Shown here: one piece after another, positions 2,421 to 57,451 of the stretch
How the letters are laid out: the number at the start of each line of letters is the position of its first letter
Position numbering within the stretch: position 1 is the first letter of the stretch
Assembly: GCA_934271195.1 (NCBI GenBank)
Contig: CAKQRB010000021.1
Span: 21-64,020, forward strand
Direction: 5' to 3'
DNA: 64,000 bases
DNA from: an uncultured Alphaproteobacteria bacterium
Lineage (GTDB): Bacteria > Pseudomonadota > Alphaproteobacteria > RF32 > CAG-239
The notes under the pieces: generated by a model
Database searches by the model: none
Seen by the model: the letters and a program-made list of their open reading frames with translations, nothing else
Told to the model about the DNA's origin: nothing
Program-made: the position numbers and the translations under genes

Positions 2421-3044
2421 TTAAGCTTTTGACAAAAGATTGAGCGCCTTGTCTCTTTCCTGCGGATAGCGCTTGCGGATAATGTTGTCCCTTTCTTTTG
2501 GAGCCATTTTTGTCAGCGCTGAAACATAAGCAATGCGGGCATCATACAACCGGTTGATAATCTCTCGGTCAGAACAGGATGAAACGTCTGTTCCGAGTGC
2601 TTTTTGGACAATCAGAGCTGCCCGCCCGTGCTGAACGGCCATGGAATACAGCACGTCTTTCAGGACAGGGTGCCTTTCTTCCGGATTAAGCCCTTTTATC
2701 ATGCCGATTTTTTTGAACAGCGGCCGGAGTTTCTGCTCAATAATAAAATCGTGCTGAGCCTGTACAAAATCTTCCTCTCTGGCAAGAGTTTGCCAAGCGT
2801 GCTCAAATGCTGCCGTTTTGTTGACGGCGCCGGTATGTCCGCCGGCATTTTGTAAAGCAGAGGCGTAAGTGATATAGCGGTCACAAGAGCTGAGAAATTT
2901 CAAAAAGTCTTTCATTGTGCCTTGCTTGGTTTCAATTTGATAAGTTCCGTAACTGTAACCGCCGGTCGTGTCATAACCGATTGCCGCCGGATTGCCGTTT
3001 GACTCAAAAGAAGAACTCAATGTGCCGAGTTTGTAAGATGTCAT
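2421..3044 (-). CDS. Lysozyme-like superfamily protein (putative peptidoglycan hydrolase/toxin), no signal peptide
   Basis: N-terminal FESNGNPAAIGYDTTGGYSYGTYQI resembles the catalytic Glu plus D..GG.S.G / G.YQ pattern of SLT/GH24/GH108-type lysozymes. Start moved to ATG 3044, which has the GGAGAAAA RBS of the conserved 49-bp module. Confidence 0.5.
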   Translation of the reverse strand: MTSYKLGTLSSSFESNGNPAAIGYDTTGGYSYGTYQIETKQGTMKDFLKFLSSCDRYITYASALQNAGGHTGAVNKTAAFEHAWQTLAREEDFVQAQHDFIIEQKLRPLFKKIGMIKGLNPEERHPVLKDVLYSMAVQHGRAALIVQKALGTDVSSCSDREIINRLYDARIAYVSALTKMAPKERDNIIRKRYPQERDKALNLLSKA

Positions 3045-3046
3045 GA

Positions 3047-3095
3047 TTTTCTCCATAAAAAAAGGCTCCTGCCGTTAAGCAGAAGCCGGATTAAA
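3047..3095 (-). repeat. 49-bp leader module, copy A: terminator-like hairpin + U7 + SD
   Basis: Identical at all 49 positions to 4620-4668. The minus strand reads TTTAATCCGGCTTCTGCTTAACGGCAGGAGCCTTTTTTTATGGAGAAAA (9-bp stem, U7, then GGAG). Confidence 0.85.
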
Positions 3096-3120
3096 AAATG
3101 CCCCGAATAAGATCCGGGGC
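3093..3120 (-). terminator. Intrinsic terminator immediately upstream of module A
   Basis: Minus strand reads GCCCCG-GATCTTATT-CGGGGC followed by ATTTTTT. Confidence 0.6.
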
Positions 3121-3217
3121 GGTTATCTTGTTATTTATAAACAGATTATAATTACATTGTCTTGTAAAATAATACATTATTATAAGCTAAAGCGCTCATA
3201 TACAGGGAGGAATGTAT

Positions 3218-3541
3218 TTATCCAAGCATAAAAATTTTAGGGTAAAAATACAATATGATGATATAATTTAATACAGCGATAACAAAACAAGAAATTAAAA
3301 AAGCCTTTTGGCTCATTTTATGATCAATAAAAAATATCGAACATGCAGCAAGACTATAGACATAAAACCACCATGGAAAAAAATGAGGAAAAAAAATGAA
3401 GTGTATTAATGTTATATAGCTGATAATGGCAATGCCGGTTATAAAATACATTGTAATATTTACAAAAAACATGCCTAAGAATAACGAAATATCCTTAATA
3501 TAACCCCATATTGTATCAGGTGGCTGCTTTATAATTTTCAT
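3218..3541 (-). CDS. Small polytopic membrane protein (3-4 TM), putative immunity protein
   Basis: Start moved to ATG 3541 (GGAGAAAGTA RBS). Strongly hydrophobic F/I/Y-rich sequence. Lies in the AT-rich patch. Confidence 0.6.
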   Translation of the reverse strand: MKIIKQPPDTIWGYIKDISLFLGMFFVNITMYFITGIAIISYITLIHFIFFPHFFPWWFYVYSLAACSIFFIDHKMSQKAFLISCFVIAVLNYIIILYFYPKIFMLG

Positions 3542-3606
3542 TACTTTCTCCTCAGTTACTATGCGTAATAATGCAATAATACCAAATGACAATTAAAGTT
3601 TGTTTT

Positions 3607-3918
3607 TTAATAACAAATATTAAATCCGTCGCAAAGAGTTTTTGTAATCTCTCCCGGATAGCAAAAGACTAGAATCCAATGATTGATAAAAGCATAGATA
3701 CTTAACATCAAATACCAAGTCTTATTTATGCCATTTTTGTTTCTGTATATAACCAATCCCCCAATAGTAGTGGCAAAATATATAAACAGAACAGAGAAAA
3801 ACGATTGGGAAAAAATGATTAAACGGGATAATATATAAAATTCTAATAATAAATAGCATTGCAATAGGGCAATGGATAGCCCCCATATTTCAGAACAAAC
3901 TTTTTTTATCCGAGACAT
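3607..3918 (-). CDS. Small polytopic membrane protein (3-4 TM), putative immunity protein
   Basis: Start moved to ATG 3918 (GGGAAGAAATATT RBS). Size and architecture match the neighbour at 3218..3541. Confidence 0.6.
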   Translation of the reverse strand: MSRIKKVCSEIWGLSIALLQCYLLLEFYILSRLIIFSQSFFSVLFIYFATTIGGLVIYRNKNGINKTWYLMLSIYAFINHWILVFCYPGEITKTLCDGFNICY

Positions 3919-3952
3919 AATATTTCTTCCCAAACTTTTTATTTATAAAAAG

Positions 3953-3980
3953 ATTATAATTGTATTGTTATATAAATCAA
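3953..3980 (-). promoter_or_regulatory. Sigma70-like promoter for the two membrane-protein genes
   Basis: Minus strand reads TTGATT-16 nt-TATAAT. The -35 box overlaps the stop codon of the 3977..4615 gene. Confidence 0.5.
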
Positions 3981-4615
3981 TAGTTATAATCACTGTCACC
4001 GTCTTGCCAGAAAGAAGATAGCGCATTATTAAGAGATGAGTCTGCAATGCCTTCGCCAATTTCTTTTAGTAATTTTCTTGCATTTGCAGGAATATGAGGG
4101 TTTGAAGCTAACGTTGCGACACCTTTAATTTGAGGTAGTTTTTGGATGCCCCAATTAGCCGCCCCGGCACTGGCAGCGCCAATGACAGTGCTTTTCAGAT
4201 GAGAAGATATATCTTTTTCTCCTGTTCCCAAACCGGCGACGGTTCCAAGGCCTATAGGTTCCAATCTTCCTAAAGCGGCTATTCGTGCCGGACTGTAATA
4301 TGCTCCGATGAATTCGGATAAAGCCGTTGATATCGGATAATTATCATTGCACCAGTTTAAATGATTGCGATTCAAGTCTCGTGCTGTTTGGTAATTTTGG
4401 CTGACAGACGGAAACGGATTTTTCAGTTCACTGACATCATCCAACGCTTTACCGGTTGCATATCCTGCACCGACTATTTCGTCTCCCCAGCCCAAAGTAT
4501 ATCCTTGGTATCCGCCGTCGGCAATGCAGCCGATTCTGTTGAAAGCTTTATTTTTTAGAGTATTTTCCTGCGAATAGTAATTTCCTCTAAGTAATTTTCC
4601 GATAGATTTTGACAT
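3977..4615 (-). CDS. Hypothetical Gly-zipper protein (putative membrane-active toxin), no signal peptide
   Basis: 212-aa ORF with the GGAGAAAACATT RBS of the conserved module. Contains G/A-rich hydrophobic stretches (IGLGTVAGLGTGEKD, VIGAASAGAANWG). Confidence 0.6.
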   Translation of the reverse strand: MSKSIGKLLRGNYYSQENTLKNKAFNRIGCIADGGYQGYTLGWGDEIVGAGYATGKALDDVSELKNPFPSVSQNYQTARDLNRNHLNWCNDNYPISTALSEFIGAYYSPARIAALGRLEPIGLGTVAGLGTGEKDISSHLKSTVIGAASAGAANWGIQKLPQIKGVATLASNPHIPANARKLLKEIGEGIADSSLNNALSSFWQDGDSDYNY

Positions 4616-4619
4616 AATG

Positions 4620-4668
4620 TTTTCTCCATAAAAAAAGGCTCCTGCCGTTAAGCAGAAGCCGGATTAAA
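4620..4668 (-). repeat. 49-bp leader module, copy B
   Basis: Identical to 3047-3095. Confidence 0.85.
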
Positions 4669-4690
4669 TAAAAAAACGGTTACTGAAAAT

Positions 4691-4726
4691 AAAAACAAAA
4701 AAAAGCCGATGCAACCACATCGGCTT
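4691..4726 (-). terminator. Intrinsic terminator upstream of module B
   Basis: Minus strand reads AAGCCGATG-TGGTTG-CATCGGCTT followed by TTTTTTGTTTTTATTTT. Confidence 0.65.
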
Positions 4727-4813
4727 ACGGTGCACACACTTACACACCATAATAAAACTAATAACGTACAGTGACACTCATGTCAATATGGCTGTCAGAT
4801 ATATGTGGATAAA

Positions 4814-4853
4814 GCAAAAAAGACAAAGCCCCGTATCAGTCACGATACAGAGC
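4814..4853 (-). terminator. Intrinsic terminator of the 4867..5355 gene
   Basis: Minus strand has a 10-bp stem (GCTCTGTATC / GATACGGGGC, with G-U pairs) followed by TTTGTCTTTTTTGC. Confidence 0.6.
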
Positions 4854-4866
4854 TTTTGTTTAATCC

Positions 4867-5355
4867 TTATCGGTATTTCAATAATGTATACCCGTAATGC
4901 TTAATCTTTTTTTCTGCTTCTTCAAAACTGCATAATCCCAGATTAACCGCTTGCAAAACAGCCGCTTCGTCAACCAGCTTTAACTTCAGCATTACCGGCA
5001 GAACCTTGTCTTCCATTTTTGGATACCATTTCAGCATTGTGGCAAAAGCTCGCAGGGGTTTATCCGGCTTGGTCAGTGAGGCGCATTCCCAGTCAATGAC
5101 CATCTCCCGATAATCCTTTTCGTTCTGGCAATGCTTTCCTTCATATTCGGTATGATGCCGCGAGTGCCGGCGGTGAATCCCCTGAACCTCTTCCACGTCC
5201 AGCCACGGAAGCCAGTATAAAAACAGCTTGTCCAGATCATGCCTCAGGCCTTTGAACGTGTTATGTCCCAAAACCTTTTTTTCAATTTTCAAAAAAGCCA
5301 GCTTGTGCCGCCAGGTGTACAAAAAATAATCAACGCGAATTGCTATAGAACTCAT
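4867..5355 (-). CDS. Hypothetical protein, possibly HD-like (DUF5662-like)
   Basis: 162-aa ORF with His/Asp-rich motifs (RHDLDK, HRRHSRHH). The family assignment is weak. Confidence 0.45.
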   Translation of the reverse strand: MSSIAIRVDYFLYTWRHKLAFLKIEKKVLGHNTFKGLRHDLDKLFLYWLPWLDVEEVQGIHRRHSRHHTEYEGKHCQNEKDYREMVIDWECASLTKPDKPLRAFATMLKWYPKMEDKVLPVMLKLKLVDEAAVLQAVNLGLCSFEEAEKKIKHYGYTLLKYR

Positions 5356-7313: not shown

Positions 7314-8390
7314 ATGCGCGAGAAGTTAAAATTTGTTTGGGAGGCAGTTTGCTATGCTTTTTCAGGTCTCTCCAAAGCGTTGAAACCTGTTATGATGCGG
7401 CTTTGTGATCTGCGGGAAAAACTGTCCGCCGCTTACTATAAGAAAACTGAACTGCATTTAACCCTGCATGGCCGATTGCGCGAACAGATTATATCTGGGA
7501 AGCTGCTCCTTGTTGCGCGTATTTTTCTGATCTTTTTTATGATTGCGCAGGCCTTTGCCGTCTATTACGTCATTCCGCGTATGAATGTTCTGATCGCCAT
7601 GCTGATTTTATATCTCCCGCTGTCTATCTTGGTTATTCGCGGCTATCGTCTGGCTTTGTTGCTGGTGATTCCTATTTCTTTTTATATTATGGTACGCTAT
7701 CAGCTGCAAAATTACGTGACCATAACGGTCGGCTCGTCCTGTACCCTGCTTTTGCTGCTGCTGGGATATTTTAACTTTAAGTTGGAAAACACCAAAAGCC
7801 TGTTGCAGCGACAGGGGCTTCTGCCCAAACCGGAAGGGACATTCTGGCGCGATTTTGCATTTTCTTTGCTGTTGTTCGGCATTTTGAACGTCTATACCAC
7901 ATTATATAACAATATGCAGGAAAAAGCCCATAAAGAGGCTCTCGAACAGGCGCATAAAAAACTGATGGAAGCTGCCGGCTATGTTGTCTATCACCAGCGG
8001 GCATACAGCGATTATTGCAAAAAAGAAGGTTGGCAGGTCAAGCTTTATCCACAGGCTTTCAATGACAAGTTTGCCGCCGAAGTCAAAAATATAGAAATCA
8101 AATTGTCCGAGCAGCAAACCAGCCTGAAGAAAATTTATGACAATGCCCGCGGCACCAATTGGTCAAAAACTTTGCGTCAGGTAGTCGAAGAAATTAATAA
8201 CATTCGTGAAGACGCTATCATCCGCCGCTTTGCCAAAGAACTCAAACTCCCTGTGGCCGAAGTCAGGATGACCTCGGAAATGGACGATACCATGACCATG
8301 AAAGAGGCCTGCAAACTGTTTGATGAAGAACACGACAAATATCTTGCCGCCGATCGTCCGGAATTCGGGGTTATTTCTATGTTTAAGTAA
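7314..8390 (+). CDS. Hypothetical membrane protein with a soluble C-terminal domain
   Basis: 358-aa ORF with a GGAG RBS. Several N-terminal TM helices. No family recognised. Confidence 0.6.
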   Translation: MREKLKFVWEAVCYAFSGLSKALKPVMMRLCDLREKLSAAYYKKTELHLTLHGRLREQIISGKLLLVARIFLIFFMIAQAFAVYYVIPRMNVLIAMLILYLPLSILVIRGYRLALLLVIPISFYIMVRYQLQNYVTITVGSSCTLLLLLLGYFNFKLENTKSLLQRQGLLPKPEGTFWRDFAFSLLLFGILNVYTTLYNNMQEKAHKEALEQAHKKLMEAAGYVVYHQRAYSDYCKKEGWQVKLYPQAFNDKFAAEVKNIEIKLSEQQTSLKKIYDNARGTNWSKTLRQVVEEINNIREDAIIRRFAKELKLPVAEVRMTSEMDDTMTMKEACKLFDEEHDKYLAADRPEFGVISMFK

Positions 8391-8399
8391 GGGGGAACA

Positions 8400-9626
8400 A
8401 TGCTGAACTTTATCTGGGCCGGATTTTTTTTGGCAGCCTTTGCCGCGGCATTATACCAAAGCCTGTGGCTGGGTAACTGGGCAATCTGGACAGATTTGGT
8501 CACGGCGGTTTTTTCTTCTTCTAAAAACGCTTTCAGTATTTCTTTAAACCTGACCGGCATTTTGTGTCTTTGGCTCGGTTTGCTGAAAATTGCTGAGAAA
8601 GCCGGTATGACCGAGGCTTTGGCCCGTCTGCTGCAACCGCTGTTCCGACGGATACTGCCGGAAGTTCCGGCCAATCATCCTGCCTTGTCGTCAATAGTCA
8701 TGAACATGGCGGCCAATGTGCTCGGACTTGATAATGCCGCCACGCCGATGGGGTTGAAGGCTATGGAGCAATTACAAAGCCTGAACCCGCATAAAGACCG
8801 CGCCAGCAATGCGCAGGTACTGTTTATGGTCATTAACGCTTCGGCGGTAACGCTGATTCCCATTACGATTTTAATGTATCGCTCCGAATTGGGGGCCGCT
8901 AATCCGACGGCTGTTTTTATGCCGATATTGTTTGCAACCTCCGTATCGACGCTTGTTGGTTTTTTGAGTGTGGCCTATGTGCAAAAACTGAAAATATTTA
9001 ATCCGGTCGTTGCCGCTTATCTTGGCAGTTTTGCCGTTTTTATCGGTGCTGTCGCGTGGTATTTTAACAGTCTGCCGGAAAGTTCCAGATTGCAGAATTC
9101 CTCCGCTTGGGGTAATTTTATCTTGTTCGGATTTATTATCCTGTTTATTACCGCCGGCCTGATAAAAAAGCTCAATGTTTATGAAAACTTTATCATCGGC
9201 GCCAAAGAAGGCTTTGATATTGCCGTCAGAATAATCCCTTATCTGGTGGCTATGCTGGTGGCTGTTGCGGTTTTGCGCGCCGGCGGCGTACTGGATATGA
9301 TTGTGCTTGGTTTTGAAAAATTCTTTAGTGCGCTGGGTTGGAATACAGATTTTGTTAAAGCTCTGCCGACAGCCTTGTTAAAACCGTTGTCCGGCAGCGG
9401 AGCGAGAGCCATGATGATAGAAACAATGCAGACTTATGGAGCTGACAGCTTTCCTGCCTTTGTTGCATCAGTTGTTCAGGGTTCAACTGAAACTACTTTT
9501 TATGTCTTGGCAGTTTATTTCGGCGCCGTAAAAATCAGCAAAGTCGGTGCCGCCCTGCCTTGCGCTTTGCTGGCCGACTTTGCCGGAATTGTCGCCGCCG
9601 TTTATTTTTCTTATCTGTTCTTTTAG
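8400..9626 (+). CDS. Nucleoside-recognition (Gate) domain membrane protein, SpmA/SpmB-like fusion
   Basis: 408 aa, about 10 TM, GGGGGAACA RBS. The overall pattern resembles spore-maturation SpmA/B-type transport proteins. Confidence 0.65.
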   Translation: MLNFIWAGFFLAAFAAALYQSLWLGNWAIWTDLVTAVFSSSKNAFSISLNLTGILCLWLGLLKIAEKAGMTEALARLLQPLFRRILPEVPANHPALSSIVMNMAANVLGLDNAATPMGLKAMEQLQSLNPHKDRASNAQVLFMVINASAVTLIPITILMYRSELGAANPTAVFMPILFATSVSTLVGFLSVAYVQKLKIFNPVVAAYLGSFAVFIGAVAWYFNSLPESSRLQNSSAWGNFILFGFIILFITAGLIKKLNVYENFIIGAKEGFDIAVRIIPYLVAMLVAVAVLRAGGVLDMIVLGFEKFFSALGWNTDFVKALPTALLKPLSGSGARAMMIETMQTYGADSFPAFVASVVQGSTETTFYVLAVYFGAVKISKVGAALPCALLADFAGIVAAVYFSYLFF

Positions 9627-9743
9627 CAACACGAACTGCTCATGCTCTGACGGGCCGCATGGCAGGCTCCCAAGCCATTATAGCCGCCGCTGGCATCACG
9701 GATAAGTTTCCCATGACTCATCTGCTGGGTTTGTTTTTTTGTT

Positions 9744-10001
9744 CAAGCAAAGTAAGAAAGAATAATAACCAACTCAACAAAGAAACCAAAACAGAAAATC
9801 AGAAAAGAAAAACGATGACAAAAGAAAGAGCAGAAAGCAATAGGTGGAGAACAAGAAGCGAGCGGCGAAGTGAGAGTAAGTTGGAAAGAAAGAGAACGGA
9901 AAATAAACGAGATAAGGAAGTGAGAAAAGAGAACGGAACGAGGAAGCGGGAAAAAAATGGCGAAGGGATAAGGGAGAGAAAAGGGAGGAACAAGTCCTCC
10001 C
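9744..10001 (+). repeat. Polypurine intergenic element, copy 2
   Basis: About 258 nt. A hand count gives roughly 17 T and 25 C in 240 nt. Boxes 1 and 2 are shared with copies 1 and 3. Ends in the hairpin GGGAGGA-ACAAG-TCCTCCC. Confidence 0.75.
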
Positions 10002-10028
10002 TTCCTATTCAAGGCATGTCTTTTATCT

Positions 10029-10096
10029 CATATCCTGCCGGAGCAACGCGGTGTTCAGGGCAGTGAGCTGACAATTGAAGCCTCATCTGCAAGATA
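10029..10096. repeat. Single copy of the 99-bp hairpin repeat family
   Basis: CATATCCTGCCGGAGCAACGCGGTGTTCAGGGCAGTGAGCTGACAATTGAAGCCTCATCTGCAAG aligns (about 75% by eye) with the units at 56713-56990. It abuts the adhE stop codon. Confidence 0.65.
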
Positions 10097-10098
10097 CG

Positions 10099-12732
10099 TT
10101 ACCGATGCTCAGTTCCGTAGTAGGCGTTCAAGTACATCTGCTTGATTTCCGAAATTAACGGATAAGCCGGGTTAGCGCCGGTGCATTGGTCGTCAAACGC
10201 CAACTCCGACAACTCGTCTAACCCGTCAAGGAAAGTCTTTTCATCTACGCCCCAATCTTTGATAGAAGCCGGAATGTTAATATTTTTCTTCAACTTTTCA
10301 ATAGCCTTAATCAGGTTGGCTACTTTCTCGTCATCGTTTTTGCCGCCAAGGTTCAGAAACTCGGCAACTTTAGCATATCTTCTTTTTCCTTCCGGATAAT
10401 GATACTGTGAGAAAGTTCCCTGCTTGGTCGGTTTGTCATTGGCATTAAACTTAATGACTTCATTAATCATCAAAGCGTTTGCAATACCGTGCGGAATGTT
10501 AAAGGCGCTGCCGAGCTTATGCGCCATCGAGTGACATACGCCGAGGAAAGCCTGAGCAAAAGCCATACCGGCCATCGTAGCGGCATAATGCATATTTTCG
10601 CGGGCTTTCGGGTTGTTGGCGCCATCGTTGACAGAAAGCTCCAGATTGTCAAAAATCAGGCGGATAGCTTCATAAGCAATACCATCGGTAAACGGCGTTG
10701 CCAGAATAGAGGCCAGAGCTTCCAGCGCGTGTGTCAGCGCGTCAATACCGGAAGCGGCCGCCAGACTGCGCGGCATAGACAGAACCAAATCCGGATCAAT
10801 AATTGACATATTGGGTGTCAAAGCATAATCGGCAATCGGATATTTGATATGCGTGTTAGAGTCGGTAATAACGGCAAACGGCGTAACTTCCGAACCCGTG
10901 CCGGAGGTTGTCGGAATGGCAACCATATAGGCCTTGGAGCCAAGATCAGGGAACATACAAACGCGTTTGCGAATATCCATAAAGCGCATTGCCAAATCAT
11001 CAAATTTGACTTCCGGATGTTCATACATCAACCAGACGATTTTGGCCGCATCCATCGGAGAACCGCCGCCGAGCGCGATAATAACGTCCGGTTCAAAACT
11101 GCGGCACATCGTCAAAGCGCGATTGACGGTATCCGTATCCGGATCCGGTGCGACTTCGGAAAAAATCTGGAACGCAATGCCCATATCTTCCAAAACGGAA
11201 GTGATTTTGTTGGTGTAGCCAAGTTGAAACAACGGTTTGTCTGTAATAATCAAAGCTTTTTTCTTGCCGCAAAGCTCGCGCAAAGCAAAACCGACAGCGC
11301 CCTGTTTGAAGTAAATTTTCGGGGGAACTCTGAACCAGAGCATATTTTCGCGTCTTTCAGCAACATTTTTAATATTCAACAAGTGTTTTACTCCTACGTT
11401 TTCGCTGGCTGCATTGCCGCCCCAAGATCCACAGCCCAGAGTGAGCGACGGGTCAAGGCGGAAGTTGTACAAATCACCGATACCACCCTGAGAAGACGGG
11501 GTGTTCACAAGCATACGACCGGTTTCAATAACCTCGCTGAAGCGGGCAATACGGGCTTTGTTATGGTCGGCGGTATAAAGGACGGAAGTATGTCCGCGAC
11601 CGGCGAAATCAACCAAATCGCGCGCCATAAACACGGCCTGTTCAAAATCATTGGCTTTGTACATGGCCAGAACCGGAGAAAGTTTTTCATAAGAAAATTC
11701 TTCTTCAGTACCGATTTTCTCGGCTTCGCCAATCAGAACCTTTGTGTCTTCGGGAACTTTAACGCCGGCCATTTCGGCAATCTTATAAGCAGGTTGTCCG
11801 ACGATTTTGGCGTTCAGCTTGCCGTCAATAATGATTGTTTTGGCAACTTTCTCTTTTTCCTTTTTGCTCAGAATATAAGCGCCGCGATATTGCATCTCGT
11901 CTTTAACGGCATCATAAATGTCTTTGTGAACGATAATTGATTGTTCGGAAGCGCAAATCATGCCGTTGTCAAAAGTCTTACTCATCAAAATGGAACTGAC
12001 CGCCATTTTAATGTCGGCTGTTTCGTCGATAATGGCCGGAACGTTTCCTGCGCCCACGCCGAGAGCAGGCTTGCCAGAAGAATAAGCCGATTTGACCATG
12101 CCCGGACCGCCGGTTGCCAAAATCAGGTTAATGCCATCATGACTCATCAGATGCTGTGTAGCCTCGATTGTCGGTTCTTCAATCCAACCGATGATATTTT
12201 CCGGAGCGCCGGCTTTAACAGCGGCTTCCAACATCAGGCGGGCGGTTTCAACCGTGCATTTTTTTGCTCGCGGGTGCGGAGAAAAGATAATGCCGTTGCG
12301 GGTTTTGAGCGAAATCATACTCTTGAAAATGGTTGTGGACGTTGGGTTGGTTGTCGGAATAACGCCGGCAATCACGCCAAGCGGTTCGGCAATTTTGGTA
12401 ATGCCGTTGGTGGCGTCGTGCTCAATCACGCCACAGGTTTTGACATGGCGATATTTGTTAAAAATTTCTTCGGCGGCAAAATGGTTTTTAATCACCTTGT
12501 CTTCCACAATACCCATACCGGTTTCTTCCACGGCCATTTTTGCCAGCGGAATACGGTGGCTGTTGGCCGCAATGGCCATGGCTTCGACAATCTTGTCAAC
12601 CTGCGCCTGAGAGAATGTCGCCATAACTTTTTGTGCGGCGCTGACTTTTGCGATTAAGGTGTTCAAATCCTCAATGCTCTTGGCACCATTATCGTTTTTT
12701 TGCTCAGTTTTCGCAACAACTTCTTTTTTCAT
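10099..12732 (-). CDS. adhE: Bifunctional acetaldehyde-CoA/alcohol dehydrogenase
   Basis: N-terminal ALDH domain plus C-terminal Fe-ADH domain (GGGSPMDAAK, HSMAHKLG). Start moved to ATG 12732 (MKKEVV). Confidence 0.93.
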   Translation of the reverse strand: MKKEVVAKTEQKNDNGAKSIEDLNTLIAKVSAAQKVMATFSQAQVDKIVEAMAIAANSHRIPLAKMAVEETGMGIVEDKVIKNHFAAEEIFNKYRHVKTCGVIEHDATNGITKIAEPLGVIAGVIPTTNPTSTTIFKSMISLKTRNGIIFSPHPRAKKCTVETARLMLEAAVKAGAPENIIGWIEEPTIEATQHLMSHDGINLILATGGPGMVKSAYSSGKPALGVGAGNVPAIIDETADIKMAVSSILMSKTFDNGMICASEQSIIVHKDIYDAVKDEMQYRGAYILSKKEKEKVAKTIIIDGKLNAKIVGQPAYKIAEMAGVKVPEDTKVLIGEAEKIGTEEEFSYEKLSPVLAMYKANDFEQAVFMARDLVDFAGRGHTSVLYTADHNKARIARFSEVIETGRMLVNTPSSQGGIGDLYNFRLDPSLTLGCGSWGGNAASENVGVKHLLNIKNVAERRENMLWFRVPPKIYFKQGAVGFALRELCGKKKALIITDKPLFQLGYTNKITSVLEDMGIAFQIFSEVAPDPDTDTVNRALTMCRSFEPDVIIALGGGSPMDAAKIVWLMYEHPEVKFDDLAMRFMDIRKRVCMFPDLGSKAYMVAIPTTSGTGSEVTPFAVITDSNTHIKYPIADYALTPNMSIIDPDLVLSMPRSLAAASGIDALTHALEALASILATPFTDGIAYEAIRLIFDNLELSVNDGANNPKARENMHYAATMAGMAFAQAFLGVCHSMAHKLGSAFNIPHGIANALMINEVIKFNANDKPTKQGTFSQYHYPEGKRRYAKVAEFLNLGGKNDDEKVANLIKAIEKLKKNINIPASIKDWGVDEKTFLDGLDELSELAFDDQCTGANPAYPLISEIKQMYLNAYYGTEHR

Positions 12733-16367: not shown

Positions 16368-17906
16368 TTACTGCCACTTTTGACAATAAAAAGCGGCTTC
16401 TTCAGAATTATTGCGGTTAAAAAACTCTCTTAAGGCATACATCTCAAGCGGATAACGCTCAATATAAGCCATAACGATGTCATGGCTGCCTTTTTGAGCC
16501 AAAAACTTTTCCGTTTCCGGATCCAACCGCCCGTCCAGACTGCATGCAAAAGCATAAGCATCTCCTTTTTCAATAAGGCCTTTTTGAAAATCAAGATAAT
16601 CATAACTGTCCTCTCTTTTATAAGCGGCAATCAACTCTTCGTCATTTTTCCGGCCGGATAAATTAAATTCTCTGATAAAAGTATCAGTATGAGGCCACTC
16701 CAGAAAACTGATGTAATGCATAATCAGATTATGGTCGCCTTTTTCCAACAGCTTACGTACGCCGTCACTCTTCAGGCAATGCTTCATGGAAATATAGTCC
16801 ATAATTTCCTGTGTCGAGCGCTTCTCAACTAAAAGTTCCTCAAAAAGGTAAGAAAAATCATGCAGAGCAATGTAAGCATAGAAATTTTCCGAACTTCCGG
16901 ATTCCAACAGCTTTTTCTGCCGTTCTTCCGATAAATCTTTCTGAGAAATCCAGAACTTAAAGTTTTCTGGATTGCCGTCGTCCAACAATTCAGCCTCTAG
17001 TTCCGAACACAAACCATGCTTCAAAAGGTGCAAAGAAATTTCTTCCCGATTGCCTCTTGCCCATAATTTTTTTTGAACTTCGGGAACAAAACCGTGACGT
17101 TCGATGTAATACATCAACTCGTCATGATTCCCTCTGCTGACAACCACGTCTTGTGCCGGCCCGCCAAATCCCATATAAGACAGATAAGCGCGTATTTCTT
17201 CGGTGTTATTGCATTGTGCAATAATAACCTGAACGTCATCGGGAAGAGCTTTGTGCTGCTGTCCGTAATGGTGAATGATGAACAAAAGGTCATCATGATT
17301 CCGGTTATGCTTAAAATATTCCGAAACCAGCTCCGGACACAGACCATGCTTGCGAAAATGCAAGAAAATTTCATCTCGGTTGCCGCGTTTCCATAGCTTT
17401 TTCTGAACCTCAGGCACAAAACCGTGACGCTCAATGTAATACATCAACTCGTCATGGTCGCCTCTGTCAACAATAATATGTTGCGCCGGCTCGCCAAATC
17501 CCAGATAAGCTAAATAAGTATGCATTTCTTGCGCGTTGTTTCTTTGCGCAATAATAACCTGAACGTCATCGGACAAAACAGGGACATATGAATAGTTGTC
17601 ATGCTTTCGAATGTTTTGATACATTTGACCGTATTTTTGAATCATGAGCAAAATTTCATCATGCTTTTGCCTTTTTGCAATTTGCAACGCTTCAGCAGGT
17701 CTTAGCATATTATCGACAAACTTGTCATAATAAAAAATCCCGTCATAGTCTTCTGCATAAACAGTTTTAAAATAGCACTCAAGCTTGTTCAGCTTCTCCA
17801 TAATCTCAATGTGGGTTTCACACTCTTTCCGCGCTTCTTCTAAAGAAACATTCGGATCCTTTACTTTTTCAGTCTTCATAATATACATAATTTTTATTGT
17901 TTTCAT
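16368..17906 (-). CDS. Helical-repeat protein of unknown family
   Basis: 512 aa built from roughly 35-40 aa units (G[DNS]H[DN]-LM-YI...). It carries a 330-bp (110-aa) internal tandem duplication. Confidence 0.7.
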   Translation of the reverse strand: MKTIKIMYIMKTEKVKDPNVSLEEARKECETHIEIMEKLNKLECYFKTVYAEDYDGIFYYDKFVDNMLRPAEALQIAKRQKHDEILLMIQKYGQMYQNIRKHDNYSYVPVLSDDVQVIIAQRNNAQEMHTYLAYLGFGEPAQHIIVDRGDHDELMYYIERHGFVPEVQKKLWKRGNRDEIFLHFRKHGLCPELVSEYFKHNRNHDDLLFIIHHYGQQHKALPDDVQVIIAQCNNTEEIRAYLSYMGFGGPAQDVVVSRGNHDELMYYIERHGFVPEVQKKLWARGNREEISLHLLKHGLCSELEAELLDDGNPENFKFWISQKDLSEERQKKLLESGSSENFYAYIALHDFSYLFEELLVEKRSTQEIMDYISMKHCLKSDGVRKLLEKGDHNLIMHYISFLEWPHTDTFIREFNLSGRKNDEELIAAYKREDSYDYLDFQKGLIEKGDAYAFACSLDGRLDPETEKFLAQKGSHDIVMAYIERYPLEMYALREFFNRNNSEEAAFYCQKWQ

Positions 17907-23370: not shown

Positions 23371-23446
23371 TGGTGAGCGCGTCGGGATTCGAACCCGAGA
23401 CCCTTTGATTAAAAGTCAAATGCTCTACCAACTGAGCTACGCACCC
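23371..23446 (-). tRNA. tRNA-Lys (anticodon UUU), CCA encoded
   Basis: The reverse complement reads GGGTGCGTAGCTCAGTTGGTAGAGCATTTGACTTTTAATCAAAGGGTCTCGGGTTCGAATCCCGACGCGCTCACCA. Cloverleaf with anticodon loop CTTTTAA. Confidence 0.92.
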
Positions 23447-23974: not shown

Positions 23975-24012
23975 TTATATTGTTCGCAGTTAAATTATGT
24001 AAGACAAATAAA

Positions 24013-25677
24013 ATGCTTGTACATCTGTTTTTATTGTTGTTCGTTCTGGGCGGAACTGCTTTTTTTCTGCCTAAAAACAAGTTTTCCCGTTTCTTTTCTG
24101 CATTGCTCTTTCTCTCGGCAGGAATCGGTGTTTGGAATCTTTTTCAGGCCTGTCATTCAGCGCATACAGAACCGTTTGTTTTCCATTGGATTCAATACAA
24201 AACCCTGCATATAGACATCAGTTTATCTTCCAATTTGCGCAATTTTATTCAAATTATGCCTTTTGGCGTTGTGTTGTTGTTTTCGCTTTTTAGCAATATT
24301 TTTTCTCGGCAGGAAACAAGACGTCTGCGTCTGGGCGGCCTTATGTGCATCAATCTGGCATTTTTGTTGCTTCTGATATGTGCCAACAATCTGATTGTCT
24401 TAATGATTAGTGCTTTTCTGATCGGCATCACAACGCTTTATATTATAAATGATTACGATTCGAAAAAAACTTATATCTTTTATAATCTGGTTTCTGACAT
24501 GGCCTTGTTTACGGCTTGTGCCATAATTTACAGCCGCTTTCATCAGGTCGAGTTGTCTGTATTGTTACGTTACGCCCATGAAGGCGAACACGTTTCGCTG
24601 GTTGCGTTACTGATTTTGCTGAGTTTGATGATAAAAAACGGTTTGTTTTTGTTTCAGAACCAATTGCTGAGTTTTCGGGATATCAATTTTAATCGGATGA
24701 TATTTTTGAGCTTTTGCAGTTTGCCGGTTGTCGGAATGTTGATTTATGAAAAAGCCCTGCCGTTGCTGTCTTCTTTTGAATATACCGGCATCATAATCGG
24801 AACGGCTGCAACCCTTTCCGTGCTCTATGCGCTGGGCGGAACTTTGATTTATGACGATATCAAAGAAAAAACACTGTGCTTTAATATGCTGTTTTGGGCG
24901 TTGCTATATGGCTTATCTTTGTCAATGCCGCAATTCTCTTTTGTCTCCTGCTATCCTCTGTTGTTGCTGATGCTGGCTCTGAATGGGCTGATTCATGCTT
25001 TGTCAGCCTCCGCTTCTGATGAGATTTATGCTTCTAAAATGGGCGGCTTTGCCAAAATGCTGTGGCCGCAGCTTGTTTTTTTCATCATTTGGTACGCCGT
25101 TTTTTCTCAAAATGTTTTTGCTTTAGCCCAACCGGTACCGATTCTGAACTTCGAGTTGGAAATTTTTGCTTTTACCATAGCTTTGGCTTTGGCACATTTG
25201 TTGCGTCAGGTGTTCTTCGGACCAACTCGGGCAGATGGCATTGTCTATGCGCGTTTACGGACTTTGCCTTATGCCGATTGCTGGCTTCCGGCAGTTTTGA
25301 TTTGTGGCTTCTATGCCTTGCCGCTGTCAAAAATTTCGGTCGCGGGGATAACGGCGCCGGCCGTATTTGTCCTGCTGCTGGTCATACATCCTCTGCGCGG
25401 CTTGTCACGTTATTACGCCGATGAAGAATTGCAGTTGTCAGAATTCTTCAAACGCTTTTATGAGCTGCTGATTTTAACGCCGATAACTGTTTTGGGACGA
25501 ATTTTGTGGTTGACCATAGATTTTGTAATTATAGAACGCACAATTATCAATTCTCTCTCGGATATGATAAAGATTTTAATCCGAATCTCTCAAAAAATCC
25601 ACCAGCCGCAAATGCTTAATTATATCCTGCTTACGCTTTGCGGACTGGGTATCATCTTTTTGTATGCGGGGAGATAA
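24013..25677 (+). CDS. Highly divergent NuoL-like antiporter-type subunit
   Basis: Polytopic protein with a NuoL-type C-terminal lateral-helix region (WLTIDFVIIERTIINSLSD...). The canonical WE (TM5) and KSAQ.P..WL.DAM..PTPVSAL motifs are degenerate. ATG 24013 is preferred over TTG 23980. Confidence 0.55.
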   Translation: MLVHLFLLLFVLGGTAFFLPKNKFSRFFSALLFLSAGIGVWNLFQACHSAHTEPFVFHWIQYKTLHIDISLSSNLRNFIQIMPFGVVLLFSLFSNIFSRQETRRLRLGGLMCINLAFLLLLICANNLIVLMISAFLIGITTLYIINDYDSKKTYIFYNLVSDMALFTACAIIYSRFHQVELSVLLRYAHEGEHVSLVALLILLSLMIKNGLFLFQNQLLSFRDINFNRMIFLSFCSLPVVGMLIYEKALPLLSSFEYTGIIIGTAATLSVLYALGGTLIYDDIKEKTLCFNMLFWALLYGLSLSMPQFSFVSCYPLLLLMLALNGLIHALSASASDEIYASKMGGFAKMLWPQLVFFIIWYAVFSQNVFALAQPVPILNFELEIFAFTIALALAHLLRQVFFGPTRADGIVYARLRTLPYADCWLPAVLICGFYALPLSKISVAGITAPAVFVLLLVIHPLRGLSRYYADEELQLSEFFKRFYELLILTPITVLGRILWLTIDFVIIERTIINSLSDMIKILIRISQKIHQPQMLNYILLTLCGLGIIFLYAGR

Positions 25678-39756: not shown

Positions 39757-39945
39757 AAAAAAATCCCGAAAGGGGGATTTTATTGGGAAGGTGCCGTCTG
39801 ACCGTATGGATTACATTCTAATCGAACCGCTTGGACAAAGTGGGTGCCGTAATAACTAAACCTCGGTTCAGACAGGGACAGCTCCCTATAAAAAAATGTT
39901 GGCTCGGTAGACCTGCGGAAATACGAGCCAGACAGTCACCTTCTA
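39757..39945 (-). ncRNA. Candidate structured ncRNA downstream of zapA (possibly 6S/SsrS by position)
   Basis: Long-range pairing of GAAGGUG..GUCUG (39943-39929) with CAGAC..CACCUUC (39800-39787). Internal hairpins. Ends in the terminator AUCCC-loop-GGGAU-U7. Confidence 0.4.
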
Positions 39946-43954: not shown

Positions 43955-43989
43955 CCTGCATTTGGTAATTTGAATGCAGGTTTTTTTTA
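43955..43989 (+). terminator. Intrinsic terminator of rpmE
   Basis: CCTGCATT-loop-AATGCAGG followed by T9. Confidence 0.8.
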
Positions 43990-44009
43990 TGCAGGGACAA
44001 AGAACTGCC

Positions 44010-45590
44010 ATGGTCAAAATAGTACATTATGAAGTATATACCGATTCCGGAGACGGCTGGAAACTGGAAGAACGGTTTTCCAACGAGCAGCGGTACGAAG
44101 CCGTAAATCTGGCCAAAGAACAGGAACAAAACCATAAAAAAGTCAAAATCATCAAAGAATACTTTGATGTTCAGGACAATTCCTATCAGGAAACGGTTGA
44201 ATATGTCAGCGGCTTTTCCAACCGGAAAAATGTCAAGGGCGGCGCTTATTCCGAAATTTCCGGCGGTAGTGCAGGCAATAACAGTTCCGAAGGCGAAAAA
44301 AGTACAGGCGCCGCAAGGCGTGACAATGTTATGACCGCTATCATCAAGCTGCTGGCAATAATTATCTTATGTCTGGCTTTGGCCAATTTTCTGGTTACTT
44401 TGTTGACCCCGATTGTTGAAAGTTTTGCGCCGGAAGAAATAACCAACCCGATTTTGTTTGTCCTGTTTTTCTGCCTTTTTCTGGGAATTGCGCTGCCGCT
44501 GCTGCTGAAGAGAGTACCTTGGCATGTCTTTATTCCCCGTTCACCGCATAAGAAAAATCTGGATGAAAGAAAGTTTTATAACCGAGCCGATATCATTGCC
44601 AAATGTTATAATATGAATGATGAGTTTGATCCTCAGCTCGCGCCGGTCTATCCTGAAGCCCCGCTGGAGTTCAAACGCTATATTCTCAATTTTCTGAGTG
44701 ATGTGGTTTCTAACATCAATTCTGCCTCGGCCTTGCAGGACAGTTTTTCTCGTCTCGGCGTTAAACTGGTAATCTTCGGCGGTTGTTTTGAACTGGCGCG
44801 CTATAGCGGCCTTTCCCTGACTGAAGCCAATTCGCTGCTGTACGAGGCCTTTAAGATATTGGACGGCGATAAAACCGATTTAGAAGATTTCTACGAGGCC
44901 AAAAAGACCTATAAAGACAACCGTTATGCCGTATTCTTAACCGGTGTCGGTGCTTATCTGATGGGACAGGTAATTTGGGAAAAACCGCTTGACATCAATA
45001 TGTTAAAGCTGTCATTTGACAAATGGGAAGAACAAAACAGCCAGCTGGACAAGGTGAAAAGCCCAGATGAAGTCATTGAAAAAGAAGTGTCTTTTTCCTG
45101 TCTGGTCAACATTAAAAATTCAGTCGAATTTATTGATACGGCAATCCCCGGACTGGATCAGCAGAAAAATGACGTCAAAGCCGGCGTGCGCAATATAATC
45201 CGGAATCTGCTTGAAAAATATAAATCCATGAGTATTTCGGAAGAAGGTGAGATAACAAGGCTGACTTTCAACAAACTGAATCGTGCGGTTAAATTTGCCG
45301 TCGATTTTCTGAATGACGTTGCAATCTATGCCGACGATATTGCTGACGAGAACATGCTGTTTCATTGTTGCTGTACGATTATCGAGGACATTCGGAGTCA
45401 GGGAGACAGCATACAGAATTACATTGCCGATTTGTTTGACCAGACCTATGACTATGAAATCGTCACGACCGAAGCCATTAACAAATTTCGGGACGAACTT
45501 GATACAACCCGCTATAATTTTGACTTTTTGGGCGAAAAAACGCTTTCGCGCTCCCAAAAAACGGAATCTATTTATAAAATATTGTATTAA
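44010..45590 (+). CDS. Hypothetical protein with two central TM helices
   Basis: ORF 43974..45590. The earlier ATGs lie inside the rpmE terminator, so ATG 44010 is preferred. Confidence 0.55.
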   Translation: MVKIVHYEVYTDSGDGWKLEERFSNEQRYEAVNLAKEQEQNHKKVKIIKEYFDVQDNSYQETVEYVSGFSNRKNVKGGAYSEISGGSAGNNSSEGEKSTGAARRDNVMTAIIKLLAIIILCLALANFLVTLLTPIVESFAPEEITNPILFVLFFCLFLGIALPLLLKRVPWHVFIPRSPHKKNLDERKFYNRADIIAKCYNMNDEFDPQLAPVYPEAPLEFKRYILNFLSDVVSNINSASALQDSFSRLGVKLVIFGGCFELARYSGLSLTEANSLLYEAFKILDGDKTDLEDFYEAKKTYKDNRYAVFLTGVGAYLMGQVIWEKPLDINMLKLSFDKWEEQNSQLDKVKSPDEVIEKEVSFSCLVNIKNSVEFIDTAIPGLDQQKNDVKAGVRNIIRNLLEKYKSMSISEEGEITRLTFNKLNRAVKFAVDFLNDVAIYADDIADENMLFHCCCTIIEDIRSQGDSIQNYIADLFDQTYDYEIVTTEAINKFRDELDTTRYNFDFLGEKTLSRSQKTESIYKILY

Positions 45591-47215: not shown

Positions 47216-47280
47216 CGTGAAAATCCGCTTGCAAATCTTGACTTTTTTAAGCGCCGCCGATGTTCGTCCTTTGGGTCATA

Positions 47281-47449
47281 TAAAAGTAAAAAAGAAGAAT
47301 AACCAACTCTATGAAAAAAACAAAAGCCTAAAATAAAAAAAGAGAATGATAGTGGATATGAGGACGGAAAAAGGGCGGAGTGAGGAAAGAGAGCGGAACA
47401 AGGAAGCTGGAAAAGAAAGTGATGGCGAGAGGGGAATTTTTCCCCTCTT
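47281..47449 (+). repeat. Polypurine intergenic element, copy 3 (shorter)
   Basis: AAAAGTAAAAAAGAAGAATAACCAACTC... and GGGCGGAGTGAGGAAAGAGAGCGGAACAAGGAAG match boxes 1 and 2. Ends in the hairpin AGAGGGGA-ATTTT-TCCCCTCT, which abuts the elbB stop. Confidence 0.7.
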
Positions 47450-56687: not shown

Positions 56688-56712
56688 TATAGTGATAACT
56701 GAAATATTCTTT

Positions 56713-56990
56713 TATATCCACTGTCAGAGCAACGCGGTCTCTGAGGCAGGGCACTGACAATTGCTGCCTCACCCGCCGCAAACTGCAAGTTTTTCAAGGT
56801 ACACATTTTTTCATATCCTCTGCGGGAGCAACGCAGTCTCTGAGGCAAGGCGCTGACACTTGCGGCCTCACCCGCCGCAAACTGCAAGATTTTCAAGGTA
56901 CACATTTTTTTATATCCTCTGCGGGAGCAACGCGGTCTCTGTGGCAGGACGCTGACAATTGTTGCCTCACCCGCCGGGTGTGAGGTATTA
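56713..56990. repeat. Tandem array (about 2.7 units) of a 99-bp hairpin repeat
   Basis: The unit motif ATATCC starts at 56714, 56813 and 56912. Each unit is ATATCCTCTGCGGGAGCAACGCGGTCTCTGAGGCAG-GGCGCTGACAATTG-CTGCCTCACCCGCCGCAAACTGCAAG... Confidence 0.85.
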
Positions 56991-56998
56991 TGACATCT

Positions 56999-57451
56999 CT
57001 ACCTCTTTGCGGCAAAAAAAGATTTTAGAATTTGAGAGCACTCTTCTTGCAAAAAACCGCTTTCCACAATCGGACGATGATGACAAGTCGGCTGCTGGTA
57101 AAACTTCACGCCGTTAAGAACTGCGCCGCCTTTAGTGTCTTCGGTTCCGATATACAAATGTTCAATTCTGGCAAAAGAAATAGCTGCCGCACACATGGTG
57201 CAGGGCTCAAGCGTTACATACATATCCAGCCCGCGCAAACGGTTACAGTTAAGTTTGCGGCAGGCTTTCTGAATTGCCAGAATTTCGGCGTGAGCCGTTG
57301 CATCAAGCGAATGTTGGCTTAAATTATAGGCAGAGGCAATAATTTCGCCATCTGTTGGATTAACAATCAACGCACCGACCGGAATCTCGTCTGCTGCGGC
57401 TGCCTGCCGCGCCAGTTCAAGAGCCTTGTCCATATAAAATTTGTGATTCAT
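56999..57451 (-). CDS. tadA: tRNA adenosine(34) deaminase
   Basis: HAEILAI and PCTMCAAAI motifs. ATG 57451 is preferred over TTG 57466. Confidence 0.9.
   Translation of the reverse strand: MNHKFYMDKALELARQAAAADEIPVGALIVNPTDGEIIASAYNLSQHSLDATAHAEILAIQKACRKLNCNRLRGLDMYVTLEPCTMCAAAISFARIEHLYIGTEDTKGGAVLNGVKFYQQPTCHHRPIVESGFLQEECSQILKSFFAAKR

Follow-up and report, generated by a model that had tools for sequence, protein, structure and literature searches.

A terminator-like hairpin joined to a ribosome-binding site precedes two putative effector genes in a gut alphaproteobacterium

In colicin operons, the toxin and immunity genes are followed by an intrinsic terminator and then by a lytic gene that depends on read-through for its expression (PMC4161892). 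We analysed a 64,000-nucleotide stretch of DNA from an uncultured gut alphaproteobacterium (contig CAKQRB010000021.1; the whole stretch is called the window below), in which a 49-nt module made of a terminator-like hairpin, a run of U residues and a Shine-Dalgarno (SD) sequence stands in front of both a toxin-like gene and a lysozyme-like gene. With moderate confidence, we read this module as the end of a conserved structured 5' leader that gates the variable effector genes of a hypervariable island and that also provides homology for cassette exchange. The gene order in the window (toxin-like gene, membrane-protein genes, tandem terminators, lysozyme-like gene) is like the colicin lysis arrangement. 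However, terminators are here also found ahead of the first, toxin-like gene, and the terminator is fused to the ribosome-binding site (RBS) and repeated as an identical module. In addition, no SOS box was seen here, the lytic gene encodes a lysozyme-fold enzyme and not a lipoprotein, and the locus is chromosomal instead of plasmid-borne.

In lambdoid phages the tR' terminator lies before the lysis or Shiga toxin (stx) genes, in the order pR'-tR'-(stx)-S-R-Rz, and the initially transcribed region of lambda contains a -10-like repeat. The locus shares with this pR'/tR'/Q control a putative promoter, one or more short-range predicted intrinsic terminators, lytic or toxin genes and a -10-like repeat. 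It differs in that the window has no Q-like gene or prophage and that two or three predicted terminators take the place of one.

Portable regulatory repeats are known as well. REP2 of Neisseria and the IR repeats of Borrelia plasmids are gene-proximal repeats in which a 5'-untranslated region (5'-UTR) holding two stem-loops comes together with an RBS and the start of the gene, its first codon included, and they are thought to come from a duplicated regulatory region (PMC3184786). Like REP2, the module carries its RBS and start context directly upstream of open reading frames (ORFs), and wherever a gene follows a copy, GGAG stands 6-8 nt ahead of the ATG. REP2 elements measure 120-150 bp, include a promoter and are dispersed in 23-26 copies per genome, whereas the module is about 50 nt long (about 75 nt with the upstream terminator), is present in two copies within one island and has the full features of a terminator. 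The many dispersed copies typical of REP2 were not found, as there are two in the window and the relatives were matched at this island only.

Polymorphic toxin systems diversify by recombination with standalone toxin cassettes (PMC3482391). The island is like such loci (CDI, Rhs, MafB, MuF) in that one N-terminal region is found with alternative C-terminal domains (P0002 versus P0010 and P0009), putative small immunity genes lie downstream, a standalone C-terminal domain is encoded further downstream, and the junctions are short and conserved. It is different in that the standalone lysozyme has an RBS and start of its own, supplied by the module, and in that the junction is a non-coding terminator-RBS unit and not a coding motif. 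MuF-lysozyme fusions were present among the homologues, linking the lysozyme domain to phage-borne polymorphic toxins (compare PMC5576092).

Judged by these features, the element would work both like a leader terminator or attenuator and like a portable repeat of the REP2 type, and it falls outside the curated families tested (Rfam, attC, REP2). What is unusual is the direct fusion of a predicted full-strength terminator to an RBS, the maintenance of at least two terminators by means of non-homologous hairpins, and the use of the terminator-RBS unit as a cassette junction as well; known principles are not overturned by it. If our reading is correct, one short RNA/DNA element would have three jobs in a compact system, namely to block transcription of dangerous genes, to supply their RBS and to offer homology for cassette exchange, and an uncultured clade of gut Alphaproteobacteria would control a peptidoglycan hydrolase and a toxin-like protein through read-through of tandem terminators.

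The module and its leader

The first-pass annotation of this DNA had claimed that 49 bp are identical between 3047-3095 and 4620-4668, and this was borne out by a core search and a repeat finder. Read on the minus strand, 3095-3047 and 4668-4620 are both UUAAAUCCGGCUUCUGCUUAACGGCAGGAGCCUUUUUUUAUGGAGAAAA, 49 nt without a difference. A 46-mer core matched exactly at 3047-3092 and 4620-4665 (minus strand) and at no other site of the window with up to three mismatches, while no copies are expected by chance (0 matches in 100 shuffles). The repeat finder aligned 3047-3098 with 4620-4671 over 52 nt at 98% identity, 49 of them identical. The surrounding DNA, described at the same time as unrelated, is so only in part, since a 48-nt repeat (81%) lies nearby at 3935-3982 and 3127-3174. 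A covariance model was built from 13 related copies and run on the whole 64-kb window with filters off; the two copies reached 84 and 78 bits, and no other site exceeded 15.8 bits (E about 0.9), which indicates that the window contains two copies and no diverged third. Their parts are as follows.

3047..3095, minus strand: module copy 2, with the hairpin at 3087-3064, U7 at 3063-3057 and the SD GGAG at 3054-3051, then the conserved ATG 3044 of the lysozyme-like gene
4620..4668, minus strand: module copy 1, with the hairpin at 4660-4637, U7 at 4636-4630 and the SD GGAG at 4627-4624, then ATG 4615 of the 212-aa toxin-like gene

The hairpin of copy 2 reads GGCUUCUGC-UUAACG-GCAGGAGCC on the minus strand, and the module hairpin has a folding energy of -17.2 kcal/mol (z = -4.75). 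The stem of an intrinsic terminator was taken to be rich in GC, no shorter than 5 bp and closed by a loop of 3-8 nt on the transcribed strand, and the module hairpin has a stem of 9-10 bp with 6 G-C pairs and a loop of 4-6 nt. The U7 abuts the stem in both window copies, and U6-U8 is found in 12 of the 13 related copies, the sole exception being L023b with UUUCUUU. This anatomy is present on the coding strand only. Downstream of U7 the module continues with AUGGAGAAAA, and the start codon lies 6-8 nt past GGAG. The likeness to an intrinsic terminator running into an SD, also proposed in the earlier annotation, thus holds on every sequence criterion.

Each copy has a further terminator-like hairpin upstream, and a promoter-like block precedes copy 1.

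3093..3120, minus strand: terminator upstream of copy 2, GCCCCGGAUCUUAUUCGGGGC followed by AUUUUUU, kept alongside the module in most related loci
4695..4726, minus strand: terminator upstream of copy 1, AAGCCGAUGUGGUUGCAUCGGCUU followed by U8
4733..4786, minus strand: promoter-like block, recognised by consensus match and conservation, with TTGACA at 4786-4781, a 17-nt spacer and TATTAG at 4763-4758
4825..4856, minus strand: terminator-like hairpin 3' of the DUF5662 gene, which would shield the leader from upstream transcription

The hairpin upstream of copy 2 (GCCCCGG..CCGGGGC with AUUUUUU, 3120-3100) and that upstream of copy 1 (AAGCCGAUG..CAUCGGCUU with U8, 4726-4703) are unrelated to each other. 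By the sequence criteria both genes do lie behind two terminators, as first suggested, with upstream hairpins that differ. A strict scan recovered 24 terminator-like sites in the window, and 5 of these fall within 3064-4856; tandem sites were found nowhere else, and two other window genes have a terminator-like hairpin abutting or overlapping their start.

The TTGACA block probably acts as a promoter, given its match to the consensus and its conservation. Its spacer holds a GTGTCAC palindrome, a second -10-like hexamer (TATGGT) follows at 4751-4746, and a GU-rich stretch, also part of the block, supplies the 5' arm for the first stem-loop of the leader. Folding of the window leader from the predicted transcription start gave three successive stem-loops, with U-tracts on the last two. 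When the regions upstream of the first gene were aligned from eight lineages, three blocks appeared: the promoter-like block, a variable middle and the module. The promoter-like block is conserved as TTGAC(A/T), the GTGNCAC palindrome, TATnnn and then an invariant TTAT(G/A)GTGT.T..GTGT, and the GU-rich part is the best conserved of the leader besides the module. From AATCC to the U-tract of the module, 26 of 34 positions are invariant, against a mean column identity of 63%; the lysozyme gene is 69-75% identical between these lineages. The variable middle has at least one lineage-specific terminator-like hairpin in every lineage, and lineages without the GCCCCG hairpin carry the AAGCCGAUG hairpin in its place. 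No leader has fewer than two terminator hairpins, even though homology between lineages is lacking for the upstream one, and this swap indicates that the number is maintained by non-homologous hairpins. We also looked for promoters that overlap the hairpin or lie in the stretch from it to the SD, and the sequence gave no credible candidate.

Rfam gave no known riboswitch or leader family at gathering thresholds, and the sub-threshold matches were generic two-hairpin small RNAs (sRNAs) and leaders. The RNAalifold consensus consists of separate hairpins in which no terminator arm takes part in another pairing, so that no competing antiterminator pairing of the riboswitch, T-box or attenuator kind was seen. 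One of the sub-threshold matches, GcvB (RF00022), matched 4630-4809 at 29.8 bits (E 6e-5 to 4e-4), spanning the GU-rich stretch and both terminator hairpins. Perhaps, then, the leader is itself an sRNA gene, giving a GU-rich trans-acting RNA of about 55-120 nt that ends at the first or second terminator; the module hairpin would mainly be the Hfq-type terminator of this RNA, and the downstream genes would be expressed incidentally. The conservation of the GU-rich block and the predicted RNA of three stem-loops with U-rich linkers are in favour of this idea, and the leader has the GcvB architecture of a GU-rich single-stranded stretch, an internal terminator-like hairpin with a U-run and a terminal terminator. 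However, the score is below the 42-bit gathering cut-off, the host is alphaproteobacterial, and an SD and a gene follow the RNA directly, so that the likeness to GcvB is one of architecture and not of membership. Also, the first hairpin of the GcvB model falls on the putative promoter, a GU-rich block is missing ahead of the copy at 3047-3095, conservation of the SD goes exactly with the presence of a gene behind it, and when the window was searched for complementary targets of the GU-rich block, nothing but that block was recovered. We consider the sRNA explanation distinctly unlikely.

Module copies and their cargo in related genomes

The 13 distinct copies from contigs of related gut Alphaproteobacteria all lie in the same island, between the LOG-like gene and the ABC transporter gene, with different genes behind them.

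L015, L016, L035-38, L044: module, then the lysozyme gene alone
L006, L023-27: module, then a 267-aa toxin-like gene, with a second module copy ahead of the lysozyme gene
L046: module, then a 299-aa homologue of only 40% identity
L039-42, L045: module, then 271-aa and 275-aa fusions of an MSKSIG... N-terminus and a lysozyme domain
L028, first copy: module, then nothing; the toxin-like gene is gone from just past the U-tract and the membrane-protein gene is retained
L033, second copy: module, then nothing; the lysozyme ORF is gone from just past a decayed SD

The toxin-like proteins behind the module range from 212 to 299 aa. Where the relatives differ in the presence or absence of genes, the difference stops at the module. 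In L033 the lysozyme gene, together with an oppositely oriented gene of 150 aa, is enclosed by two copies of the GCCCCG terminator plus module; the 150-aa gene has no homologue in the window. The conservation of the module is specific to this locus. An exact-pattern scan of 185,579 species genomes (GTDB representatives) gave 20 matches, of which 17 were unrelated terminators in other phyla and the remaining true relatives were three metagenome-assembled genomes (MAGs) of gut Alphaproteobacteria, matched at this island only. Of two scans of JGI metagenomes, one was without matches and the other returned four chance matches in marine coding DNA. DNA scans of viral contigs gave no matches to the module, protein scans of viral contigs gave marine lysozyme domains at 36% identity only and no match to the toxin-like protein, and a tblastn search of GenBank phages with the toxin-like protein was likewise negative. 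The recurrence of the 49-mer before accessory genes, proposed earlier as a check, was thus seen within the island, ahead of different genes, and not elsewhere in the window or, by exact pattern, elsewhere in the related MAGs. Module and leader together can serve as a sequence tag for finding more such effector cassettes in metagenomes.

Across the 13 copies, 99% of the cells for the nine stem pairs hold a standard pair. The 5' arm is nearly invariant and the 3' arm has A/G switches opposite U (U-A to U.G); there is one compensatory change, C-G to U-A, in L046. The loop varies (UUAACG, UUUUUU, UUUGC, CUUGUGG). The SD is retained in all copies that precede a gene and is decayed in both gene-less copies (L033b and L028a), and this conservation exactly where a gene follows indicates that the module serves the translation of the downstream gene.

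The relatives also bear on the start codon of the lysozyme-like gene. Gene callers place it at ATG 3056 within the module (211 aa, MEKIM..., P0003), but the in-module AUG is missing from most related copies, where AUUGGGAG, AUAAGGAG or AUCGGAG is found instead, leaving ATG 3044 as the conserved start. The in-module ATG is thus probably not the start codon, and the probable start is corrected here: the gene most probably begins at ATG 3044 and encodes 207 aa (MTSYK...).

Two copies in one island, together with the gene-less relics in L033 and L028, might also suggest that the second copy is a functionless, neutral remnant of a recent local duplication. Yet the module is conserved ahead of the first gene in lineages with lysozymes of only 65-89% identity, it also precedes a toxin homologue of only 40% identity, and hairpin and SD are preserved throughout. 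A neutral duplication is accordingly very improbable.

The fusions connect the two kinds of cargo. The first 49 residues of P0010 are those of P0002 but for one difference, after which the lysozyme domain replaces the toxin core, and P0009 is built in the same way, with an N-terminus of the P0002 type and a lysozyme domain. These two fusions show that the same N-terminal region can carry either the lysozyme domain or the toxin core as its C-terminus. Further away, the distant toxin-like homologues L054 and L057 have a leader with a promoter-like element, one hairpin and an SD, and small membrane proteins are encoded downstream of the toxin-like gene even in distant relatives. L057, a distant alphaproteobacterial MAG, has two 310-aa toxin-like paralogues, each behind a near-identical promoter-hairpin-SD leader (7900-8003 and 11190-11282), and further products of its cluster (8001-12211) are a lysozyme of the GH108 family, a membrane protein of 103 aa and a secreted-type protein of 165 aa. 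The combination of toxin-like protein, small membrane protein and peptidoglycan hydrolase thus recurs here, with a lysozyme that is not homologous. P0123, P0125, P0128, P0132 and P0013, a set of distant toxin-like homologues and a MuF-lysozyme fusion, share the N-terminal motif ..P[IL]KR.NP..G...YY.....IDV..PD.PNP, which suggests a common trafficking or packaging region that may serve different C-terminal domains.

Proposed read-through expression and cassette exchange

In the proposed mechanism, each slot would consist of a promoter-like block, at least two intrinsic terminators and then SD and ATG, with an intrinsic terminator joined directly to the RBS of whichever effector gene fills the slot. 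From their anatomy, the hairpins would be expected to terminate transcription in vivo. As the stretch from the last terminator to the SD accommodates no promoter, effector mRNAs would arise only from polymerases that read through both hairpins. Such a throttle would end most transcripts as short leader RNAs, and the minority that reads through would be translated from the module SD. A peptidoglycan hydrolase and a membrane-active toxin-like protein would thereby be held at low or conditional levels.

Several points weigh against this reading. Two strong tandem terminators would leave very little read-through unless they were relieved, and no relieving factor was found in the window; the reading thus implies a very low basal level or an uncharacterised antitermination factor. 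The covariation of the hairpin is not significant (71 of 500 shuffles equal it), because the copies are so similar, and the invariance of the 5' arm exceeds what a plain terminator needs, which hints at sequence-specific recognition. RNAalifold can pair the promoter-like block with the GU-rich stretch instead. Finally, the leader hairpins of the distant relatives L054 and L057 have weak U-tracts only, so that termination may not be the ancestral role of the leader hairpin.

Relief of the terminators could come from regulated processive antitermination, in which a Q-like protein, a NusG paralog (RfaH, LoaP) or an RNA element would join RNA polymerase at the conserved block near the promoter and take it past both terminators, turning on the effectors in response to a signal. 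The order of promoter, tandem terminators and lytic or toxin genes resembles the lambdoid arrangement described above. In eight lineages, an invariant -10-like TAT(G/A)GT after the putative -10 and the GTGNCAC palindrome in the spacer are compatible with this possibility without being specific to it. Leader terminators combined with antitermination have also been documented in other operons (PMC13401043, PMC12691694) and offer a precedent. On the other hand, the scan of about 45 window ORFs for NusG-paralog, Q, RfaH or LoaP-type genes, the kind of check proposed in the first-pass annotation, was negative. No ops-like element was noticed in reading the leader. The neighbouring DUF5662 protein, whose gene is the sole island gene beside the leader, was rejected as a Q-like antiterminator: its gene is missing from several islands that retain the leader, its H/HD/H/HH/D motif is HD-like, and it has no structural match to Q and no sequence or fold match in the PDB. 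Regulated antitermination is therefore only a tentative possibility and on balance unlikely.

A different role for the hairpin would be post-transcriptional, as a protective stem-loop with the U-tract acting as a ribosomal protein S1 or translational-enhancer site, the whole being a portable region for efficient translation initiation. Hairpin, U-run and SD always move with the start codon, the hairpin of the distant relatives precedes the SD with a weak U-tract only, and REP2 and IR are precedents for portable 5'-UTR/RBS repeats with stem-loops (PMC3184786). But a GC-rich stem of 9-10 bp followed by U7-U8 is the canonical signal of a terminator and is always accompanied by a second one upstream, and no promoter is evident from which an mRNA with the hairpin as its 5' end would be made. 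We regard this role as improbable.

Gating of transcription, as we prefer to read the module, can go together with its use as a boundary between cassettes. The alternative offered in the earlier annotation, that the conserved junction is used for cassette exchange, gained comparative support from the different genes behind the module, the breakpoints at it and the two gene-less copies. In the window, the two copies are in direct orientation and enclose the toxin-like gene and both membrane-protein genes; the module is present twice because the island holds two cassettes. The duplicated module provides about 50 bp of perfect direct homology at which cassettes could insert, be deleted or be exchanged, and recombination between the copies would leave the single-module, lysozyme-only state found in L015 and L035. 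The gene-less relics and the fusions of the N-terminus to lysozyme point to exchange at the module and at the domain boundary alike, and the short direct repeats at cassette edges suggest that the island is a mosaic of cassettes, of which the module is the most conserved boundary. From these comparisons we infer that recombination probably uses the module.

Whether the module might be a site-specific recombination site at the DNA level (attC-like or dif-like) that moves cassettes was also considered, given its 9-6-9 palindromic layout and the direct repeats that enclose cassettes both in L033 and in the window. However, neither the window nor the related loci have a gene for an integrase or recombinase. 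The A/G switches in the arm opposite T keep RNA wobble pairs and not DNA symmetry, the hairpin has 24 nt, and the module is far shorter than attC. The sole GTTRRRY-like word lies in the variable loop and is thus lineage-specific. Integron gene cassettes would call for a neighbouring integrase and for attC with its paired, conserved core sites, and these are lacking here. Such a site is hardly probable. A MITE (a miniature transposable element with inverted repeats) or transposon was rejected, since terminal inverted repeats other than the hairpin, dispersal and a transposase are all lacking. A broader and doubtful proposal is that the island is an integrase-free expression site for interchangeable effector cassettes. 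From one conserved promoter and a structured leader, mostly a short GU-rich RNA closed by the tandem terminators would be made. Each cassette would bring along a shared 49-nt terminator-RBS adaptor acting as both gate and recombination handle, and the effectors would need an uncharacterised antitermination signal or be made in a small subpopulation of cells.

Genes of the island and other features of the window

The genes of the island and the elements between them are listed here.

2421..3044, minus strand: lysozyme-like protein, 207 aa, Pfam T6SS_VgrG3-like_C (E 3e-30)
3127..3174, minus strand: second copy (81%) of the 48-nt element, directly upstream of the tandem terminators ahead of the lysozyme gene
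3218..3541, minus strand: 107-aa multi-pass membrane protein, candidate immunity protein
3607..3918, minus strand: 103-aa multi-pass membrane protein, candidate immunity protein
3935..3982, minus strand: 48-nt element with a perfect TATAAT and TTGATT at -35, directly upstream of the first membrane-protein gene, candidate internal (immunity) promoter
3977..4615, minus strand: toxin-like protein, 212 aa, all-alpha and Gly-rich, with an N-terminus (MSKSIGKLL) that is also on the lysozyme fusions of relatives
4867..5355, minus strand: DUF5662 gene, directly upstream of the leader, in some related islands and not in others

No signal peptide is evident in the 207-aa lysozyme-like protein. The 212-aa toxin-like protein has no Pfam match, and its core shows distant similarity to the N-terminal part of phrog_5880 (phage proteins of about 660 aa and uncharacterised function). 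The AlphaFold model of its 267-aa relative is all-alpha with a pLDDT of 70, and a structure search with the toxin-like protein found nothing in the PDB, its sole matches being weak ones to phage proteins of 600-770 aa that are uncharacterised. In L023 the 267-aa toxin-like gene is followed by a gene for a 120-aa protein, to which the 107-aa membrane protein is 67% identical. That the 103-aa and 107-aa membrane proteins are holins was judged less likely because both lack a charged C-terminal tail. The paired 48-nt elements (81% identity) enclose both membrane-protein genes. It is plausible that both effector-like genes encode toxins, and the toxin-like, lysozyme and membrane proteins would then be effector and immunity proteins.

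DUF5662 is a widespread family, mostly of 117-130 aa, with invariant H, HD, H and HH together with IDWECA..TKPDKP motifs, which give it the look of an HD hydrolase. Its AlphaFold model is confident (pLDDT 92) and all-alpha, with no significant fold match and no sequence match in the PDB.

On one side the island is flanked by tgt and the LOG-like gene, and on the other by an ABC transporter, a 358-aa protein without family match and a Gate-domain transporter. The GC content is 28-33% over 3200-4200 and 45-50% in the flanks. Beyond these genes, the window consists of ordinary alphaproteobacterial chromosome (TrcR, EF-P, ThrRS, PFK, RNase J, QueH, 6S RNA), and type VI secretion system (T6SS), phage, integrase and antiterminator genes were not found in it. 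The nearest named relatives are gut MAGs called 'Alphaproteobacteria bacterium', for example from water-deer rectum.

Purine-rich intergenic repeats occur on the plus strand at about 40-300, 9720-9990 and 47250-47420, with the core GGTCAAGCAAAAGTAAGAAAGAAGAAWAACCAACTCTA..GAAGAAACCAAAA.CAGAAAAT followed by 100-200 nt of nearly pure A/G. The repeats have no Rfam family match, and the first two flank a 9.7-kb segment from tgt to the Gate-domain transporter with the island inside. Downstream of the ThrRS gene, a 99-nt unit is present three times in tandem (56706-57002, 72-88% identity), with a related 56-nt copy at 10035-10090; it could be a REP-like or terminator-like element. Three large ORFs are without a Pfam match at E <= 1e-5: 31202-35305 (minus strand, 1367 aa), 23980-25677 (plus strand, 565 aa) and 43974-45590 (plus strand, 538 aa). 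A direct repeat of 255 nt (77%) at 16988-17242 and 17318-17572 lies inside a 512-aa ORF without Pfam match (16368-17906), which suggests that this ORF encodes an internally repeated protein. The sole Rfam matches at gathering score in the window are a 6S RNA at 39788-39941 (minus strand, 51.7 bits) and one tRNA at 23374-23446 (minus strand).

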